Below are positions 30,076 to 63,969 of a stretch of 64,000 nucleotides of DNA, in pieces. The stretch's first letter is position 1, and the number at the start of each line of letters is the position of its first letter. The stretch is from positions 141,741 through 205,740 of IMG/VR virus record IMGVR_UViG_3300017565_000001. The stretch is one strand, 5' to 3'. Origin of the DNA: a virus (taxonomy: Duplodnaviria > Heunggongvirae > Uroviricota > Caudoviricetes). The position numbers and the translations under genes are program-made. The notes beneath the pieces were generated by a model, which was not told the origin of the DNA, made no database searches, and saw only the letters and a list, made by a program, of their open reading frames with translations.

Positions 30076-30246
30076 AGTTGTTGACATGTGGCATTCCGTT
30101 TGCTAAAGTATGATCTGTGGTGCAGATTGCTAAATAGATTTGTCGCAACACTGCACAAAATTTTCACAAATAGTTATTGCAAACCCGAAAAGGTTCATGT
30201 ACTATTTGTTCTGTTGATTATTAAATTTCTCGAAAAGGAAACTTTC

Positions 30247-30357
30247 ATGAACGCTTATTCATATTTCTCGTACTGCTCGGAGACCGAAGGGTCGTCGCGC
30301 GGCTACGGCTATGAATGCGGATATGAGGGTACGTTCGGGGGTTGGCGAATGCGATAA
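30247..30357 (+). CDS. attenuator leader peptide 1 (36 aa, Tyr/Ser/Glu/Gly/Cys-rich)
   Basis: AAGGA RBS; MNAYSYFSYCSETEGSSRGYGYECGYEGTFGGWRMR directly before terminator and tRNA array. Confidence 0.8.
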   Translation: MNAYSYFSYCSETEGSSRGYGYECGYEGTFGGWRMR

Positions 30358-30420
30358 GCGTTCACCTAGCGAAAGCTAACAACCCTCGAAGCGTAATAGT
30401 TTCGGGGGTTTCGTGTTTTA
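30324..30420 (+). promoter_or_regulatory. attenuator 1: antiterminator 30324-30334/30380-30390 competing with terminator 30381-30392/30399-30410
   Basis: TTCGGGGGTTG pairs with CAACCCTCGAA (11 bp); AACCCTCGAAGC/GTTTCGGGGGTT (12 bp) followed by TCGTGTTTT. Confidence 0.8.
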
Positions 30421-30435
30421 GATGTTGAGATTTAC

Positions 30436-30522
30436 GGGTGGTAGGTGCGCTGGGCGCTAACTTGCCTCGAAAACAAGCCCCTCCAGTGATGGGGGATGGT
30501 TCGATTCCATTACTACCCGCCA
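30436..30522 (+). tRNA. tRNA-Ser(CGA), probably 8/4 acceptor/T-stem form
   Basis: GGGTGGTA/TACTACCC, long variable arm, G73, CCA. Confidence 0.8.
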
Positions 30523-30534
30523 AGAACGTTTCGT

Positions 30535-30619
30535 GTATCAGATGGTAAACTGGCTAAATCAGCTGTCTGTAAAACAGTCGCCTCCGGGCTTGTAGGTTCG
30601 ATTCCTACCTGATACACAA
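30535..30619 (+). tRNA. tRNA-Tyr(GTA)
   Basis: type II cloverleaf; ends ACAA (CCA not encoded). Confidence 0.9.
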
Positions 30620-30633
30620 AACGTTTTTGAAAT

Positions 30634-30718
30634 ATCCTGTGATGACGGCTGGGTACCGTCAGAAGACTTTCAATCTTCCCTGTTCCACAGTGGGGTTCGA
30701 TTCCCCCACAGGATACCA
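30634..30718 (+). tRNA. allo-tRNA-like species with TTC (Glu) anticodon, 8/4 fold, long variable arm
   Basis: ATCCTGTG/CACAGGAT; TGACGG/CCGTCA D-stem; GAAGA-CTTTCAA-TCTTC; CTGT/ACAG V-arm; GGGG/CCCC T-stem; CCA. Confidence 0.7.
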
Positions 30719-30727
30719 AGTTTTAAT

Positions 30728-30812
30728 GGGGATGCGGCTCAGATGGCGAGGGGCGGCTGACTGTAAATCAGTTCTTTCGGGTGAGTAGGTTCGAATCCTT
30801 CCATCCCCACCA
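30728..30812 (+). tRNA. tRNA-Tyr(GTA)
   Basis: cloverleaf with CCA. Confidence 0.95.
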
Positions 30813-30819
30813 AGTTTTT

Positions 30820-30895
30820 ACTCTGTTCGTCTATCGGTTAGGACGCTAGACTTTCAATCTGGAAAGACGGGTTCGACTCCCGTACAGAGTGCCAG
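30820..30895 (+). tRNA. tRNA-Glu(TTC)
   Basis: cloverleaf with CCA. Confidence 0.95.
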
Positions 30896-30905
30896 AATTA
30901 TTCCA

Positions 30906-30992
30906 GTCTTACTGATGAGCCCTAATGGGCGAAACAGTTGCAGGGAAAGATGGTGTTTCCGCCCCCATCAAGTATCTGTAGCTGTCTGAGAC
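30906..30992 (+). ncRNA. hammerhead ribozyme (type I); predicted cleavage after C30986
   Basis: stem I GTCTTA/TGAGAC, CTGATGA core, stem II GCCC/GGGC, GAAA, stem III CAGTTGCAG/CTGTAGCTG, GUC cleavage triplet. Confidence 0.9.
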
Positions 30993-31000
30993 ATGTTTGT

Positions 31001-31075
31001 ATTGCCGTTGACTTCTGGTGAGGTCTCCAGGCTTTCAACCTGGCTAGGCGAGTTCGATCCTCGTCGGCAATACAA
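31001..31075 (+). tRNA. tRNA-Glu(TTC)
   Basis: CCAGG-CTTTCAA-CCTGG; ends ACAA. Confidence 0.85.
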
Positions 31076-31086
31076 AGATGTTTCAT

Positions 31087-31183
31087 GTAGGGGATGTTCC
31101 GTAAGGCTGACGGTAAAATCGATAAAAGTGTGATGGGTGCTGCCCTAAACACCCCAGAGGTTCGAGTCCTCACCCCTACTCCA
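31087..31183 (+). ncRNA. tRNA-like RNA without a canonical anticodon loop
   Basis: GTAGGGG/CCCCTAC stem, T-arm GAGG-TTCGAGT-CCTC, TCCA end. Confidence 0.6.
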
Positions 31184-31192
31184 AGTTTTAAT

Positions 31193-31280
31193 GGGTTCCT
31201 TTCCCGCCGGCGGTCTGTAAAACCGTTGCCTAATAAGGTGGGTTGGTTGGCGTGAGGTTCGAAGCCTCGGGAACCCACCA
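31193..31280 (+). tRNA. non-canonical tRNA-Tyr(GTA)-like RNA lacking a normal D-arm
   Basis: GGGTTCC/GGAACCC, GCGGT-CTGTAAA-ACCGT, T-arm, CCA; only 10 nt between acceptor and anticodon arm. Confidence 0.7.
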
Positions 31281-31289
31281 AGTTTTAAT

Positions 31290-31364
31290 GCACCGTTCGT
31301 CTATCGGTTAGGACATCGCCCTTTCAAGGCGGCAAGATGGGTTCGATTCCCATACGGTGTGCCA
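31290..31364 (+). tRNA. tRNA-Glu(TTC)
   Basis: cloverleaf with CCA. Confidence 0.95.
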
Positions 31365-31421
31365 GTTGACCTCGTATTCATTTGATGCCATAATGGTAAG
31401 AATGTAAACGAGGAGAACGAT

Positions 31422-31646
31422 ATGGCTGATCGCGTGACCCTTCGGGGTAAGCTGATTGATGGGCAGTATGATCGCGAAATCGCGGATGCTGTTATTCAAG
31501 AAGCACGCAAGACGGTTGATGTCCCAACCCAGAACATTTACGTTTGTGGGTCCTGGGGTGGATACGTCACTATCAGTTGTAATGTACAAGGATTTTGTGA
31601 TGCCCTAGTTGTCGCTGCCCGGAACATGGGGCTTGACGTTCAATAA
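31422..31646 (+). CDS. hypothetical protein within tRNA array
   Basis: GAGGAG RBS, own promoter-like TTGAC..CATAAT. Confidence 0.7.
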   Translation: MADRVTLRGKLIDGQYDREIADAVIQEARKTVDVPTQNIYVCGSWGGYVTISCNVQGFCDALVVAARNMGLDVQ

Positions 31647-31655
31647 GGAGGCAAC

Positions 31656-31799
31656 ATGAGAGCATTTGGTAGTGTTCGTGGTAAATACTGTGAGTGGAGA
31701 TTCACTGGTAGATATTACGGACGAAGCAGAATTTTCAATGCGGGGAAACTTGAAATCAAGTCCCGCAAACGTGGACGGAAATGGTCCACAGATGATTGA
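31656..31799 (+). CDS. small basic peptide (47 aa)
   Basis: AAGGAGG RBS; MRAFGSVRGK... Confidence 0.45.
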   Translation: MRAFGSVRGKYCEWRFTGRYYGRSRIFNAGKLEIKSRKRGRKWSTDD

Positions 31800-31807
31800 C
31801 CGATTAC

Positions 31808-31881
31808 GCGGGTAAGCTCGAGGTGAGTCGCCGGCCTTCCAAGCCGCGCAGAGTTGGGTTCGATTCCCACTATCCGCTCCA
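31808..31881 (+). tRNA. tRNA-Gly(TCC)
   Basis: cloverleaf, U73, CCA. Confidence 0.9.
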
Positions 31882-31999
31882 GTTTTGAATGTGAGAGAAA
31901 TCTCCTGGCTAGTCACAAGGGAACGACAGAATCGGGGCAACGAGCCTTAACCTTGCCCGAAGAACGGAAATATCCGTCTACGTCGTTACGTTCGTTTTT

Positions 32000-32074
32000 G
32001 CAGGATTAATTCAGTGGTAGAATGTCTGCTTGCCAAGCAGAATGTCATCGGTTCGAATCCGATATCCTGCTCCA
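32000..32074 (+). tRNA. tRNA-Gly(GCC)
   Basis: cloverleaf, CCA. Confidence 0.95.
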
Positions 32075-32082
32075 AGTTTTAT

Positions 32083-32158
32083 GCGTGGGTAGCTCAGTTG
32101 GTAGAGTACCTGGTTGCCAACCAGGACGTCGCGGGTTCGAACCCCGTCCCACGCTCCA
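32083..32158 (+). tRNA. tRNA-Gly(GCC)
   Basis: cloverleaf, CCA. Confidence 0.95.
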
Positions 32159-32166
32159 GTTTACAT

Positions 32167-32257
32167 GTTCCGGTGGCCGAGTTGGCTTAGGCAGCGGTCT
32201 GCAAAACCGTTAGCGGGAGAAATCCCCACGCAGGTTCGAATCCTGTTCGGAACTCCA
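32167..32257 (+). tRNA. tRNA-Cys(GCA) with long variable arm
   Basis: GCGGT-CTGCAAA-ACCGT, GGGA-GAAA-TCCC V-arm, U73, CCA. Confidence 0.85.
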
Positions 32258-41515: not shown

Positions 41516-42003
41516 GTCAACATCTCTTTAAGGACTAGATGCGCGAAGCCTGTACTTGGCACGTTCTTAATAATCGTCCAAGTAGAATTGTTATTGGACC
41601 CTTCGATTGAAATACTCGTTGGTTGTCTACCAAAGTCGGTTGGGCACGCAATCTTCACACTGCCGATAACTTTGGATGCAGTCAGATCAACGGACCACCA
41701 GCATGATCTATTCGCATTGGGGGAATTGTTGGCGGCGCCACACCACATGCTTGTAGTCGCTGATGATATGACGCCGTCAATGGGCCCAACTATTCTGTAT
41801 GTTGCGTCATAAACGCTTGATGCGAAACATGGTGTGGTACCCAAAACACACAAATTGGATCCAGTGGTAGTGGTGCGTATTTCCACTTCACTAATAGTAG
41901 GGTACTGTCCACCAGCAAGTAATACGATTCGAACGTATCGATAAGAATTTGCCGGAGGGGCCGGCCGTTTACTCGCCAGCAAAAGTCTTTGAGAAATCGT
42001 CAT
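41512..42003 (-). CDS. discoidin / F5-8 type C domain protein (paralog)
   Basis: YRYVRI ... WWSVDL ... IEGSNNNSTWT. Confidence 0.75.
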   Translation of the reverse strand: MTISQRLLLASKRPAPPANSYRYVRIVLLAGGQYPTISEVEIRTTTTGSNLCVLGTTPCFASSVYDATYRIVGPIDGVISSATTSMWCGAANNSPNANRSCWWSVDLTASKVIGSVKIACPTDFGRQPTSISIEGSNNNSTWTIIKNVPSTGFAHLVLKEMLT

Positions 42004-42098
42004 AACGCTATAGTTGACCGTTCGATATCAAAATTGTAGTTTAATATTTATGGTGGCGCACCATACTAAATAAAATGCACACATAATTAGGCGCAAAC

Positions 42099-60220: not shown

Positions 60221-60436
60221 ATGGTCTCAAAGGAGGCCTTCTTTATGGCACAAACACTAACTCTGGAAGAATTTGACGAGCAATTCAATGGTGCGCCCAT
60301 TGACTTGGAAGAGCTGGCACGATACGCCACAAGCGTCGAAGACGACGTAGAACTCGCTGACGCAGCTGACGCCTTTTTGGAATCTATGGAAGACTTCCGT
60401 TCTGAACTGGCTGCACGAAATATTGAGTTAGGTTGA
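60221..60436 (+). CDS. hypothetical acidic protein (start likely MAQT)
   Basis: AAGGAGG RBS. Confidence 0.6.
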   Translation: MVSKEAFFMAQTLTLEEFDEQFNGAPIDLEELARYATSVEDDVELADAADAFLESMEDFRSELAARNIELG

Positions 60437-60624
60437 AGATTTCAAAGCTTCGTCATAAATATGTTGACAAGCAAAACGATTGTGCGTAAAGTACGATCTC
60501 GCAAGTGAGAAATCACAAGCAACAAGAAATTTGAGATGACATCAAAAAGTTCTTGCAAGTTTGGCAAGCAATTGTTAGACTTGAAACTGTTGTAGGTTGT
60601 TTCTAACGAAGCAGCTTGCAATTT

Positions 60625-60871
60625 AGGATTGGTACAGCAAACTCCAAAATCTACTTAACCGTCGATGTTGCTGGACTTAATCGTTGCTGAGGAAACTCAG
60701 CAGGGCATCTGGGGTCTTGAATGACTCCGTATAGATGACCCCATTCCGCAAGGGTGTTGATTAAGGTGTGCGGCAACTAGGTTCATGACCGAAATCATGA
60801 TATTGTTGGTAGAAACCAACGGGGCACGTAGGACCCTGAACGTGTCTTATAGAAGGGGGACCGCAATCCTG
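60625..60871 (+). ncRNA. large ACAGCAA-scaffold RNA with multi-hairpin insert
   Basis: AGGATTG/CAATCCT closing stem, TACAGCAAA, ends ATCCTGTTA like the 39490 element; at least 5 internal hairpins. Confidence 0.55.
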
Positions 60872-61060
60872 TTAACCCCCACTGAAAAGTGGAAAAATTC
60901 ATTGGTGTAGTGTAAAAACTACACCTTGTGAACAAGGTTAAAAATTTTGTTGTTTTATCACAAAGTATTTGACACTGTTTGCTAAATAGATTTACCATAA
61001 ACGTATTGTTAATTGCTGAAGACATTGTGTCCAAGGCACTTTCTAGGATTAGAGACTGAA

Positions 61061-61189
61061 ATGAAACCCTTTTTCCATCAACCCGTCGTGAAAGCGCTGA
61101 GCTTGCCCGCGATGTTTGCCGCCCAATGGCAAACCCGCAGTCAGCTTCGCAATATTCGCGATAATCGGGTAGGGGTCTTAGGAACGTAA
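61061..61189 (+). CDS. attenuator leader peptide 2 (42 aa; not in ORF track)
   Basis: MKPFFHQPVVKALSLPAMFAAQWQTRSQLRNIRDNRVGVLGT directly before terminator and tRNA array. Confidence 0.75.
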   Translation: MKPFFHQPVVKALSLPAMFAAQWQTRSQLRNIRDNRVGVLGT

Positions 61190-61254
61190 GTTCAGTCAAG
61201 CGCATACGCTTAACTAAGATCCCTAGAATGTAAAAGTTCTAGGGATTTTTGTTT
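61172..61254 (+). promoter_or_regulatory. attenuator 2: antiterminator 61172-61181/61214-61223 competing with terminator 61219-61228/61237-61246
   Basis: GGGGTCTTAG/CTAAGATCCC (10 bp); ATCCCTAGAA/TTCTAGGGAT followed by TTTTGTTT. Confidence 0.85.
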
Positions 61255-61426
61255 GGCAAGCGAACCGTGAAAAATGAGGAAACGAGCTCCTCGATTCACA
61301 CGGCAAAAAGAGAATCAAAGGGGCGGAGCTAGGGCATGAACACTGGGCGATAACCAGTTAGTAAGAACTAGTTCATATGTGAGTGTCTGTACGTTGGCAT
61401 TCACATACGTTCAGAGAGTTCTTTGT

Positions 61427-61503
61427 CTGGGATTAGGAAAGTCAGGTTAATCCATTTGGTTTGGAACCATAGGGCCCCGGTTCGAATCCGGGATCCCAGA
61501 CAA
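61427..61503 (+). tRNA. tRNA-Pro(TGG)
   Basis: cloverleaf; ends ACAA. Confidence 0.8.
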
Positions 61504-61539
61504 AGAGCTCACTGAACAGCAAAGAATGAAAATTCTTTG

Positions 61540-61619
61540 CTCCGCAGAATCCAAGCTTGGTGCAAGGACTTGACTGTTAATCAATGATTAGCTGGGTTCG
61601 ATCCCCAGATGCGGAGCAA
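61540..61619 (+). tRNA. tRNA-Asn(GTT)
   Basis: TTGA-CTGTTAA-TCAA, T-arm; ends GCAA. Confidence 0.8.
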
Positions 61620-61631
61620 AGAGTTTTCAAT

Positions 61632-61708
61632 GGGCAGGTGGTGAGAAAGGTTAGTCCGAGATCCTTACAAGATCTAGCATGTCAGTTCGAGTCTGACCCT
61701 GCCTACCA
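61632..61708 (+). tRNA. tRNA-Val(TAC)
   Basis: AGATC-CTTACAA-GATCT; weak D-stem; CCA. Confidence 0.85.
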
Positions 61709-61725
61709 AGTTTTGTAGTATCTGA

Positions 61726-61800
61726 TGGGGTGTAGTGAAATGGCTATCACAGCTGACTTTGACTCAGCTATTTCTGGTTCGAATCCAGACACCCTTGCCA
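61726..61800 (+). tRNA. tRNA-Gln(TTG)
   Basis: cloverleaf, CCA. Confidence 0.95.
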
Positions 61801-61821
61801 GAAATCAAGAGATTATTTAGG

Positions 61822-61897
61822 GGTGGCTATAGTTCAATGGCTAGAATTGCTGACTGTGAATCAGCGGAAGAGGGATCGAAACCCTCTAGTCACCCCT
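61822..61897 (+). tRNA. tRNA-His(GTG)
   Basis: G-1:C73, GTG anticodon, atypical T-loop ATCGAAA. Confidence 0.9.
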
Positions 61898-61909
61898 AAA
61901 TGATCTCAT

Positions 61910-61985
61910 GCAGATGTGACAGTGATGGTTCATGTGCTAGTTTGAAAAACTAGATATGTTGGTTCGATCCCAACCGTCTGCACCA
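61910..61985 (+). tRNA. tRNA-Phe(GAA)
   Basis: CTAGT-TTGAAAA-ACTAG, CCA. Confidence 0.9.
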
Positions 61986-61992
61986 AGTTTGA

Positions 61993-62072
61993 TGGGGAGT
62001 GAGTGCAAGTGGTCTAAGCCGACTGGTTCTGAGCCAGTATGTTCGTAGGTTCGAATCCTACCTCCCCCGCCA
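61993..62072 (+). tRNA. tRNA-Gln(CTG)
   Basis: ACTGG-TTCTGAG-CCAGT, CCA. Confidence 0.9.
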
Positions 62073-62093
62073 ATTGCAGTAGAAAAGTTCAAC

Positions 62094-62169
62094 GGGTCGT
62101 TGACAGAGCGGTTTATGTACCGGACTCTTAATCCGTGCCAGGTGGGTTCGACTCCCACGCGACCCACCA
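62094..62169 (+). tRNA. tRNA-Lys(CTT)
   Basis: cloverleaf, CCA. Confidence 0.95.
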
Positions 62170-62175
62170 AATTAT

Positions 62176-62249
62176 ATCCATGAGCCGGAAGATTGACGGT
62201 GCTACCATCAGGTAGTGAAAGACGATTGAAATGATCTCCATGGGTACCA
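62176..62249 (+). ncRNA. tRNA-sized CCA-ended RNA with no anticodon loop or T-loop consensus
   Basis: ATCCATG/CATGGGT A CCA; GCTACC-ATCA-GGTAGT hairpin. Confidence 0.5.
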
Positions 62250-62260
62250 AGTTTTACGCT

Positions 62261-62335
62261 GGTCTGTTCATATAATGGTTATTATGCTGGACTGTCTATC
62301 CGGACACACGGGTTCGATCCCCGTACAGACCGCCA
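62261..62335 (+). tRNA. tRNA-Asp(GTC)
   Basis: cloverleaf, CCA. Confidence 0.95.
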
Positions 62336-62388
62336 AGTTTCACAGTGTATTGTAGGTCCCCGAGATCTCTACACAAACCAAGTTTTAT

Positions 62389-62472
62389 CCCCCGGTGGCT
62401 AATCCAAATCTGGTACAGGTAGCGTCCTCAGACGGCGTGCCTCTGTCGGTTCGAATCCGACCCAGGGGACCA
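62389..62472 (+). tRNA. tRNA-Leu(CAG), short variable region
   Basis: GCGTC-CTCAGAC-GGCGT, A73, CCA. Confidence 0.8.
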
Positions 62473-62481
62473 ATTTTAAAT

Positions 62482-62571
62482 GGGCAGTTACCCAAGTGGT
62501 TAAGGGGACGGTTTGCTAAACCGTTAGGTCGGTCAAATGGCGCGTGGGTTCGAACCCCACACTGCCCGCCA
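62482..62571 (+). tRNA. tRNA-Ser(GCT)
   Basis: type II cloverleaf, CCA. Confidence 0.95.
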
Positions 62572-62593
62572 TATTTCTTTGAGCATGATTTGC

Positions 62594-62668
62594 TCCGGTG
62601 TAGCTCAGTGGTAGAGTAGCGGACTGTTAATCCGTTTGTCGCTGGTTCGAGCCCAGCCTCCGGAGCAA
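62594..62668 (+). tRNA. tRNA-Asn(GTT)
   Basis: cloverleaf; ends GCAA. Confidence 0.95.
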
Positions 62669-62679
62669 ATCATGTTTAT

Positions 62680-62754
62680 GCGTCCTTCGTTCAGTGGAAA
62701 GGACAGTGGGCTACGAACCCGCAAACGGGAGTTCGATTCTCTCAGGACGCGCCA
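62680..62754 (+). tRNA. tRNA-Arg(ACG)
   Basis: cloverleaf, CCA. Confidence 0.95.
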
Positions 62755-62916
62755 GAATTCCTCCTAGGAGGTACCACCCTGGAGGTGGGCTTTACGGTTG
62801 CCAAAGAGTGTTTGAGCGGAGCCTGTAGTTCAAACAACGACAACCGTACAGTAAGGAGCAGGAAGCGGTAACCAGGGATTGGTTAATTCTGATCCCTCGG
62901 TCCCACGGATTTCAAC

Positions 62917-62992
62917 ACCTGGTTAGCTCAGCGGTAGCAGCGGCGTCTTGATAAGGCGTAGGTCATTGGTTCGATCCCAATACCAGGTACCA
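62917..62992 (+). tRNA. tRNA-Ile(GAT)
   Basis: cloverleaf, CCA. Confidence 0.9.
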
Positions 62993-62998
62993 AGTTTA

Positions 62999-63105
62999 GG
63001 GTCATCCAGGAGGCGAGGTTGGGTTCGATTCCCAAACAATCTTAAGTGATTGTTGCTGGACGCCGCCGACGGGCACGATGAGTTCGATTCTCATGTGATC
63101 CACCA
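62999..63105 (+). ncRNA. tRNA-like RNA with two T-arms
   Basis: GGGTCAT/GTGATCC A CCA; TTGGG-TTCGATT-CCCAA and ATGAG-TTCGATT-CTCAT. Confidence 0.7.
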
Positions 63106-63300
63106 CCAATTAACCCCTTAAATGGGCACTCGCCGAACGTGGTAGGCGTATCTGGGGCTATTACGTAAATGCAGCCAGTAGCTAAGTAAAAACGACTCTT
63201 CCCAATTATCAGATTAAATTGGACCAATTCAATTTTTTCCTTGTGAGAGTGGCCGAAGCGATACTAGTTTGAGCCCAGTCCGAACTTCTCACAAGGTTTT

Positions 63301-63372
63301 CCCCCGGCCTGCGGACAGGCTTCGACGCTACGAACGTTGATTGCGGTGGTTCGAATCCACCTCGGGGGTCCA
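63301..63372 (+). tRNA. tRNA-Arg(ACG) with minimal CGGA-tetraloop D-arm
   Basis: CCTG-CGGA-CAGG; CGACG-CTACGAA-CGTTG; CCA. Confidence 0.8.
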
Positions 63373-63380
63373 AGTTTTAT

Positions 63381-63452
63381 GGGGAATGTACCGGAGTACA
63401 CACTAGGCTGGCAGTCTGGTTTTGATGGGTTCGACACCCATATTCTCCACCA
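63381..63452 (+). tRNA. tRNA-Ala(GGC) with minimal CGGA-tetraloop D-arm
   Basis: G3:U70, GTAC-CGGA-GTAC, CCA. Confidence 0.85.
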
Positions 63453-63564
63453 ATTTTGCTTGATTTCTGAGCCAAATCAGTTTATTATTTGGCTCCTGTA
63501 GTGTTGCCATATTGCAGGATTGTTCTTCAGTCAGGACAGTTGATCATTGGTTATTGACAACTGA

Positions 63565-63969
63565 TTGGAGAATAAAATGATGTATTGGCAAAATGATGCA
63601 GACGCCTTGAACAAGGGTGTAGGAAAGATTGTGTCGGAGGTGCAAATCTCTGATGAAGACGCTACCTTGAAGTTTGAGGATGGGTCTTCCATCTACCTGT
63701 ACCATGATCAAGACTGCTGTGAATCGGTATATATTGAGTCTGTTGTTGGTGATGTCGCTGACCTCGTTGGTGAAATCCTAATGGTGGCCGAAGTTGTTGA
63801 CGGGGAAACCCCAAATGATTTCGAGTTTCAATACGAACCTGAAAGCTTTACTTGGACGTTTTACAAGTTTCGTTCCCGTAAGGGTGAAATCGTAATCCGT
63901 TTCCTGGGTGAGTCCAACGGATATTACTCAGAATCGGTAACGGTACAATTCTCGGACGGCGTTCATTAA
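63565..63969 (+). CDS. conserved phage hypothetical protein
   Basis: LYHDQDCCESVYIE ... TWTFYKF ... GESNGYYSE motif. Confidence 0.75.
   Translation: MENKMMYWQNDADALNKGVGKIVSEVQISDEDATLKFEDGSSIYLYHDQDCCESVYIESVVGDVADLVGEILMVAEVVDGETPNDFEFQYEPESFTWTFYKFRSRKGEIVIRFLGESNGYYSESVTVQFSDGVH

Follow-up and report, generated by a model that had tools for sequence, protein, structure and literature searches.

A putative ribosome-mediated transcription attenuator upstream of a tRNA array in a 424-kb phage genome

The stretch of DNA analysed here (the window, 64,000 nt) corresponds to bases 141741-205740 of a phage record of 424,529 bp with direct terminal repeats. ARAGORN predicts 57 tRNA/tmRNA genes in this 424-kb genome, the majority of them in a tRNA-rich zone where they are interspersed with small protein genes. 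The genome contains two large uninterrupted tRNA arrays, each preceded by a long non-coding stretch. Array 1 (30436-32257 in window numbering) comprises Ser-CGA, Tyr, Glu, Gly and Cys tRNAs. Array 2 (61427-63452, plus strand), which holds the genes presumed to be regulated by the unit described below, comprises 14 tRNAs at the default ARAGORN threshold, representing 12 specificities (Pro, Val, Gln, His, Phe, Lys, Asp, Ser, Asn, Arg, Ile and Ala). Relaxing the threshold adds a tRNA-Leu(CAG) at 62392-62472, which raises the number of specificities to 13, and an Asn(GUU) element at 61541-61617.

Upstream of array 2, a consensus scan identified a sigma70-like promoter (TTGACA-18 nt-TACCAT, 60969-60998, plus strand) that matches at 10 of 12 positions, and the leader transcript is presumed to start near 61005. 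The resulting 56-nt 5′-UTR contains a Shine-Dalgarno-like AGGA (61045-61048, plus strand) 12 nt upstream of an ATG; its anti-SD duplex of -4.0 kcal/mol is about the median of this phage's gene starts, i.e., average. The ATG at 61061 opens a leader ORF of 42 codons (leader 2, P0001; 61061-61189, plus strand) that ends at a TAA (61187-61189). This 42-aa ORF had been put forward in a sequence-only reading of the window and is real, in that it translates directly from the sequence and is also predicted by a public gene caller. Two other candidates in the region, a minus-strand ORF of 135 aa (60795-61205) and an in-frame TTG start for leader 2 at 61013, were rejected, as both are without a family match or a ribosome-binding signal.

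The last codons of leader 2 can pair with the terminator that lies beyond its stop codon. An antiterminator 5′ strand within codons 37-41 (61170-61181, plus strand) forms a predicted duplex of -20.2 kcal/mol with a 3′ strand at 61214-61225 (plus strand), which covers 10 of the 14 nt of the terminator 5′ arm. The core of this duplex, GGGGTCTTAG (61172-61181) with CTAAGATCCC (61214-61223), is the 10-bp pairing that the earlier reading had noticed, and two flanking pairs extend it to 12 bp. The intrinsic terminator (61216-61249, plus strand, -18.2 kcal/mol) contains the 10-bp core proposed earlier within a full stem of 14 bp (61216-61229/61236-61249, loop GUAAAA), and the U-tract, TTTTTGTTT, can be read from the sequence at 61246-61254 (plus strand). 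The distance from the leader 2 stop to the terminator arm is 26 nt. Compared with dinucleotide shuffles (-12.8 ± 2.6 kcal/mol), the antiterminator is unusually stable (P = 0.003-0.011), and among 139 genomic control terminators it falls within the top ~4%. MFE folds also predict a long imperfect hairpin that encloses the ORF (61054-61197, plus strand), which would be a possible pause or 1:2 element.

Unit 2 therefore has an ORF between a promoter and the tRNA genes, an intrinsic terminator, and an antiterminator that excludes the terminator and could be occluded by a ribosome, as in an attenuator. Past the terminator, a structured spacer with predicted stable hairpins (61255-61403, plus strand) leads towards array 2, the first tRNA of which starts 177 nt beyond the terminator. 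The sequence-only reading had drawn attention to bypass of the terminator by a downstream promoter; this was looked for, and the promoter scan found no sigma70-like promoter on the plus strand between the terminator and the first tRNA of array 2 (61255-61426). The result bears on the main rival to the attenuator, in which a small RNA or micro-gene, transcribed from its own promoter and insulated by its terminator, forms a small unit independent of array 2 and adjacent to it by coincidence, the array being transcribed from another, unrecognised promoter. Such a unit would suit the strong structure of the 221-nt region (z = -5.4 versus shuffles in MFE folding); the promoterless interval argues against it, as does Rfam, which holds no family for unit 2 or for the related units described below.

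The promoter of unit 2 overlaps a 15-mer, TTGCTAAATAGATTT (60979-60993, plus strand), that occurs exactly twice in the 424,529-bp genome, the other site being 30127-30141 in the sibling unit that precedes array 1. At both sites it lies upstream of a leader unit, and it may be the site for a common regulator. One explanation would accordingly assign the control to a factor other than the ribosome, either a directly bound tRNA, as in a T-box, or a protein at this 15-mer, and the confinement of the 15-mer to the two units and its overlap with the unit 2 promoter are in its favour. However, the placement of the 15-mer relative to the promoters differs between the units (transcribed at +11 in unit 1, within the spacer and -10 box in unit 2), and a protein bound there would add to the terminator switch, not replace it. 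An Rfam search of 60300-63600 at E up to 1 returned tRNAs only, with no match to a T-box or other riboswitch. We regard control by such a factor as very improbable.

An additional promoter (TTGACA-17-TAAAGT) is associated with the block at 60464-60950, upstream of unit 2, and has the motif TAAAGTAYGATCT in common with a promoter at 30081. This outer promoter is followed by ~450 nt of hairpin-rich non-coding DNA without an Rfam match and by terminator-like hairpins at 60904-60950. Compared with unit 1, unit 2 looks as though the 60464-60950 block had been inserted between the outer promoter and the shared 15-mer.

The sibling unit upstream of array 1 (unit 1) contains a leader ORF of 36 codons rich in Tyr, Ser, Glu, Gly and Cys (leader 1, 'attenuator 1'; 30247-30357, plus strand) and a terminator (30382-30409, plus strand) that lies 26 nt upstream of the first tRNA of array 1 (30436). 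The terminator can form an antiterminator duplex of -19.5 kcal/mol with 30333-30353. The mere 26 nt between the terminator and the first tRNA in unit 1 also count against an independent transcription unit. Elsewhere in the genome, single tRNA genes lie directly behind perfect TTGACA promoters (27488, 40790 and 79486 in window numbering), and host-type promoters therefore plausibly drive phage tRNAs; the promoters of both arrays are instead followed by an ORF and a terminator. We scanned both strands of the genome blind for every terminator-like hairpin with an ATG ORF of 20-60 codons ending 15-40 nt upstream. Among the 22 ORF-plus-terminator cases obtained, units 1 and 2 are two of the three with the strongest duplexes between ORF end and terminator arm, and no other case has tRNAs downstream of a small ORF with a strong antiterminator.

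The composition of the leaders was compared with a background of 389 long ORFs of the same phage. Leader 2 contains 17 kinds of amino acid and is without Cys, Glu and Tyr, a diversity that is ordinary (P = 0.52). As had been claimed from the sequence, all 13 array 2 amino acids are present in it, although the 13th specificity, Leu(CAG), needs the relaxed ARAGORN threshold; the same coverage is found in 12% of 41-residue windows of phage proteins (P = 0.12). Residues of this 13-amino-acid set make up 35 of the 41 (P = 0.04). The absence of Cys, Glu and Tyr has a probability of 0.023 and, together with the presence of all 13, of 0.0015. Codons cognate to array 2 tRNAs under standard wobble number 22 of 41, against a background of 0.49 (P = 0.35), and leader 2 is therefore not enriched for the codons of its own array. 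A tuning of the leader to its own array's 13 specificities, as proposed, is thus not borne out. The related remark that Ser is encoded only by AGC/AGT and Arg only by CGN (CGC three times, CGG once) is true but not significant, with chance figures, obtained by arithmetic from phage codon usage, of about 0.16 for two of two Ser AGY codons and 0.45 for four of four Arg codons. Regulatory codons are not clustered either: each amino acid occurs one to four times, and the only tandems are Phe-Phe, Val-Val and Ala-Ala. Leader 2 by itself falls short of a pangram, i.e., a peptide with nearly all 20 amino acids; leaders 1 and 2 jointly contain all 20.

The informative signal in leader 2 is the exclusion of the other array's codons, not a match to its own array. 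Codons readable by array 1 tRNAs (Tyr, Glu, Cys, Gly-GGY and Ser-UCG) are absent from leader 2 (0 of 41 versus 7.0 expected; P = 7e-4, corresponding to 0.07% of 41-codon windows in phage genes). The other two frames of leader 2 contain five and nine such triplets, so that zero is reached solely in the frame of the ORF. Leader 1 shows the converse composition, with 24 of 35 residues from the array 1 set of Tyr, Ser, Glu, Gly and Cys (P = 3e-8) and 20 of 35 codons readable by array 1 tRNAs, a value unmatched in 200,000 windows; array 2-readable codons are limited to 7 of 35 (P = 0.0017). As a frame-specific partition of codons is hard to explain otherwise, both small ORFs appear to be read as codons. 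Residues 2-11 of leader 2 are drawn entirely from the amino acids that the first seven array tRNAs specify (post hoc P about 6e-4). This is not relied on, as the N-terminus of a related leader, L060, is similar although the array behind it is ordered differently.

Close relatives of unit 2 were not found in IMG/VR with the leader peptide, three neighbouring proteins or the shared promoter pattern as queries. In a search of 5.8 billion proteins with leader 2 the sole match was the ORF itself, and the two public copies are 100% identical and hence offer no microdiversity to read. Blastn against GenBank phages matched only the tRNAs of the unit 2 region and nothing in two units of the family introduced below. 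Just past array 2 lies a DUF7448 gene (63577-63969) with 569 relatives in IMG/VR. As many of these relatives are located inside or beside arrays of 10-29 tRNAs (loci L008-L070), DUF7448 can be considered a tRNA-array companion.

Related loci were collected via this neighbouring gene and represent tRNA arrays of unrelated uncultured phages. In several of them, the tRNA array is preceded by an ORF of 26-43 codons that follows a consensus promoter and is itself followed by a terminator whose stem is of the CCCTAG or CCCTCTGAG type. When the 424-kb genome was searched with a profile of eight such units from other phages, the best site was 61172-61254 (nhmmer E = 1.3e-4), which spans exactly the antiterminator strand through the terminator, and a covariance model of the terminator module scores the unit 2 terminator with 66 bits. 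Units 1 and 2 both align with the family over this 3′ module, with a mean column identity of 53% (alignment A5).

The pairing between ORF end and terminator arm recurs across the family. It was found in all 11 units examined (-13 to -21.5 kcal/mol), and in all 11 the stop-to-arm distance is 22-33 nt. Column-wise analysis of antiterminator covariation (MAFFT and CM alignments) was dropped: the registers shift by 1-2 nt between subfamilies, which makes column counts unreliable, and an alignment-free test of the duplex against shuffles was used instead, on members gathered with the covariance model of the terminator module. For 54 distinct units, the median duplex was -19 kcal/mol compared with -10.4 kcal/mol for shuffles (median z -3.5), with P<=0.05 in 87%. 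This recurrence bears on the possibility that the terminator is constitutive and partly leaky and simply sets the level of the array, the ORF and the complementarity being incidental. The diversity of leader 2 and its coverage of the 13 specificities, both within chance, and its background-level codon match to array 2 would agree with a leaky terminator. They leave unexplained the stability of the antiterminator, both here (P = 0.003-0.011) and in 87% of the 54 family units, the conserved spacing of 22-33 nt between stop and terminator, and the absence of array 1 codons from leader 2 (0/41, P = 7e-4). We consider a leaky terminator of this kind quite unlikely.

Loci were also selected from IMG/VR by the terminator motif alone, which avoids selection on the ORF. 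Where enough downstream sequence was available, a tRNA starts within 400 nt in 62 of 72 such loci. Upstream of the motif there are 37 distinct ORFs (median 36 residues), of which 23 comprise the full set of 20 amino acids and 27 at least 19, with a null probability of 0.003-0.02 for each all-20 leader. A looser second terminator motif served as a control, and its matches without downstream tRNAs mostly lack such an ORF. Among the first nine related leaders, seven have all 20 amino acids within 32-43 residues (chance per peptide 0.0005-0.015), and further leader variants in the protein database mostly comprise 19-20 kinds. A specialised leader, L207:12148-12264 (also in L209 and L213), was found by this second terminator motif alone and is an independent case of a codon-matched leader. 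It lies 10 nt upstream of a Leu-Asn-Leu-Leu-Val-Cys-Thr-Leu-Met array, and 18 of the 21 residues at its positions 2-22 are Leu, Asn, Val, Cys, Thr or Met. Across these examples, the composition of the leader tracks that of the array, in that full arrays go with pangram leaders and partial arrays with matched or complementary ones.

A sub-lineage with 30-codon leaders (L087, L088, L121, L125 and L139) has its first tRNA 9-21 nt past the terminator. These leaders are without Ala and Gly, and tRNAs for these two amino acids are likewise missing from the contiguous arrays behind them; for Ile and Gln the correspondence is imperfect.

Most related phages have a second consensus promoter, located past the terminator and ahead of the tRNAs, and in them the unit cannot be the only driver of the array. 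The second promoter is followed, just upstream of the first tRNA, by GTTCTTTAAAAATTTG (or GTTCTTTAACAATTCGG), which resembles the boxA of rRNA operons (L028:4750-4770, L031:4298-4318, L026:4502-4520 and L070:2078-2096). This resemblance suggests that rrn-type processive antitermination may act on phage tRNA arrays. The presence of a consensus promoter past the terminator in most relatives is also what would be expected if the units were independent of the arrays. Against this, the ORF is open in every family member even though the peptides are only 10-26% identical to leader 2, and the pangram composition and the frame-specific partition are both features at the codon level, not of the RNA. 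Taken with the promoter scan and the short spacing in unit 1, this makes an independent small transcription unit unlikely.

The peptides have two short motifs in common, a C-terminal Gly-Phe-x and a Ser/Thr-Arg-Pro. Together with the prediction of leader 2 by a gene caller, they could point to a functional micropeptide, for instance one that modulates tRNA processing or a host tRNA nuclease, whose gene the terminator would merely end. However, the codons for the conserved C-terminal residues coincide with the nucleotides pairing with the terminator arm, the remaining peptide diverges freely, and searches of Pfam and PHROG returned no match; we consider a micropeptide function highly unlikely. 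A comparison of two close leader variants, L057:4216-4323 and P0002, revealed an exchange in which His at position 6 is replaced by Gln and Gln at position 12 by His, and all 20 amino acids are therefore kept in both peptides. The exchange looks compensatory with respect to amino-acid composition.

Pangram units precede tRNA arrays in L026, L028, L031, L057, L060, L067, L070, L100, L116, L144, L158, L207, L225 and others. With unit 2 they share the order of promoter, ORF, antiterminator in the last codons, terminator past the stop and then tRNAs; their ORFs have 26-46 codons, their CCCTAG-type terminators lie 22-33 nt past the stop, and their 3′ module is detectably homologous to that of unit 2. 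They also differ from it in several respects. In most pangram relatives the ORF starts 5-9 nt past the -10 box and looks leaderless, whereas unit 2 has a 56-nt 5′-UTR. Most are complete pangrams and carry a second promoter plus a boxA-like element past the terminator, whereas leader 2 has 17 kinds and unit 2 is without a second promoter. Finally, unit 2 shares its job with a second, complementary leader.

To model the influence of a translating ribosome, partial transcripts reaching the terminator 5′ arm were folded after masking of a 28-nt ribosome footprint. In this partial-transcript model, A-site positions at codons 1-35 allow the unit 2 antiterminator to form and positions at codons 36-43 block it, a pattern seen in 9 of the 10 modelled units, the exception being L050. 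The unit 2 antiterminator also forms in the model without any ribosome, from which untranslated transcripts would be expected to read through. Full-length equilibrium folding, in contrast, gives the terminator nearly everywhere in units 1 and 2, with exceptions at two to four codons near the start (codons 3-4 in unit 2). As the terminator dominates at equilibrium, the switch would have to be kinetic. In one study (PMC4824070), a terminator is reported to be suppressed when a ribosome sits at a stop codon only a few bases away, with termination recovering as the distance grows; the stop-to-arm spacing in the family fits this distance effect.

Based on its architecture, the family homology and the codon statistics, the 60969-61254 region is probably a ribosome-mediated transcription attenuator that gates array 2; translation of the leader, the kinetic competition and the physiological signal are what we infer from this evidence. 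Host RNA polymerase would start at the 60969-60998 promoter, and a ribosome would load on the 42-codon leader. If the 61170-61181 strand is free when the terminator arm emerges, the antiterminator would form and the polymerase would read through into the tRNA genes. If the ribosome is already at the last ~8 codons or the stop, the strand would be covered, the terminator would fold and transcription would stop at 61250-61254. The outcome would thus be decided by a race, with termination only if the ribosome has arrived at the end of the ORF by the time the polymerase makes the terminator. Unit 2 would in this way measure the decoding speed of the leader, and slow decoding at any of the 17 kinds of amino acid would turn array 2 on. 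The broad-spectrum attenuator of the sequence-only reading is consequently retained as a switch of leader ORF, antiterminator and terminator with a leader of broad composition, for which the homology and geometry of the family, its pangram leaders and the codon partition argue; what falls away is the tuning to its own array.

Since leader 2 is without array 1 codons and leader 1 consists mainly of them, the two arrays would respond to separate parts of the tRNA pool. More tentatively, the two units may form orthogonal codon channels, each array being induced only by slow decoding in its own channel, and may be specialised descendants of widespread pangram leader attenuators that read the state of the whole host tRNA pool, for example after a tRNA-cleaving defence has fired, and let phages respond with tRNAs of their own. 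We hold this extension to be possible rather than probable.

In classical attenuators, sensitivity comes from tandem codon runs, and the decision in classical trp attenuation is kinetic. Unit 2 and the leader-peptide attenuators of the trpL, hisL, pheL, leuL, thrL and ilvL type (PMC1183508, PMC3082878) have in common a short ORF between promoter and genes and a terminator 5′ arm that alternatively pairs with the strand at the ORF end, with the position of the ribosome deciding in the latter and predicted to decide in unit 2. Unit 2 differs from the attenuators of amino-acid operons in its target, which is phage tRNAs and not biosynthetic enzymes, and in its leader, which has 17 kinds of amino acid (all 20 in relatives) and no codon run for a single one. 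In the folding model its default without a ribosome is readthrough, so that a protector 1:2 hairpin is not clearly required. E. coli pheM, the leader of pheST (phenylalanyl-tRNA synthetase), is a case in which a leader peptide sensing charged tRNA sets the expression of a translation-apparatus gene; unlike unit 2, pheM is cellular, senses a single amino acid and has a protein-coding target. In attenuators that sense general translation stress, slowing of the ribosome on a short upstream ORF lifts termination, and the response is not restricted to a single amino acid. For vmlR (PMC9226507) and the msrD leader (PMC10314930), ribosome stalling or attenuation is reported to be linked to the expression of translation-protecting factors. 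These attenuators respond to antibiotics or arrest peptides, whereas unit 2 is without an evident arrest motif and has tRNA as its output. T-box riboswitches would serve the same purpose as unit 2, coupling the expression of translation genes to the tRNA pool, but they act by direct binding of tRNA, and unit 2 has no T-box match.

E. coli pheU and pheV were considered as a precedent with a Phe-rich leader and rejected: in K-12 both lie ~105 nt past the preceding gene, without room for a leader and a terminator, and the upstream sequence of pheV contains no leader. Full-text literature searches yielded no description of a leader-peptide attenuator before tRNA genes in phages or cells, and as none was found in the literature, the pangram leader units before phage tRNA arrays appear to be unpublished. 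To our knowledge, the regulation of phage tRNA genes is essentially unknown. Phage tRNAs are now viewed as a means of countering host systems by which tRNAs are cleaved or depleted (PMC10264068, PMC11555353, PMC12409363). If the attenuator reading is correct, a feedback sensor would read the speed of decoding and switch on tRNA synthesis when any tested codon is slow; phage tRNA expression would then be demand-driven, and the unit would give direct experimental access to the conditions under which phage tRNAs are required and the reasons for it. Leader-peptide attenuation, which textbooks tie to amino-acid operons, would be extended to RNA genes, and a new design principle would be added in which one test ORF samples many or all amino acids instead of repeats of a single one. 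The presence of two complementary leaders within the same genome would constitute a natural specificity control.

Further observations concern the tRNA genes themselves. The flanks of tRNA-Pro(UGG) in array 2 form an extended stem of ~23 bp, perfect in the predicted fold, that encloses the ARAGORN-predicted tRNA (61404-61524, plus strand) and resembles a double-strand processing stem; the Asn-GUU element seen at the relaxed threshold (61541-61617) likewise has a hairpin directly upstream. Three gaps in array 2 (62170-62260, 62755-62916 and 62993-63299) contain structured elements of tRNA size that are called by neither ARAGORN nor the Rfam tRNA model. Outside the window, the same phage encodes an ARAGORN-predicted tRNA with a CUA anticodon (amber suppressor type) and a tmRNA (C1:53129-53203 and 41648-42040).
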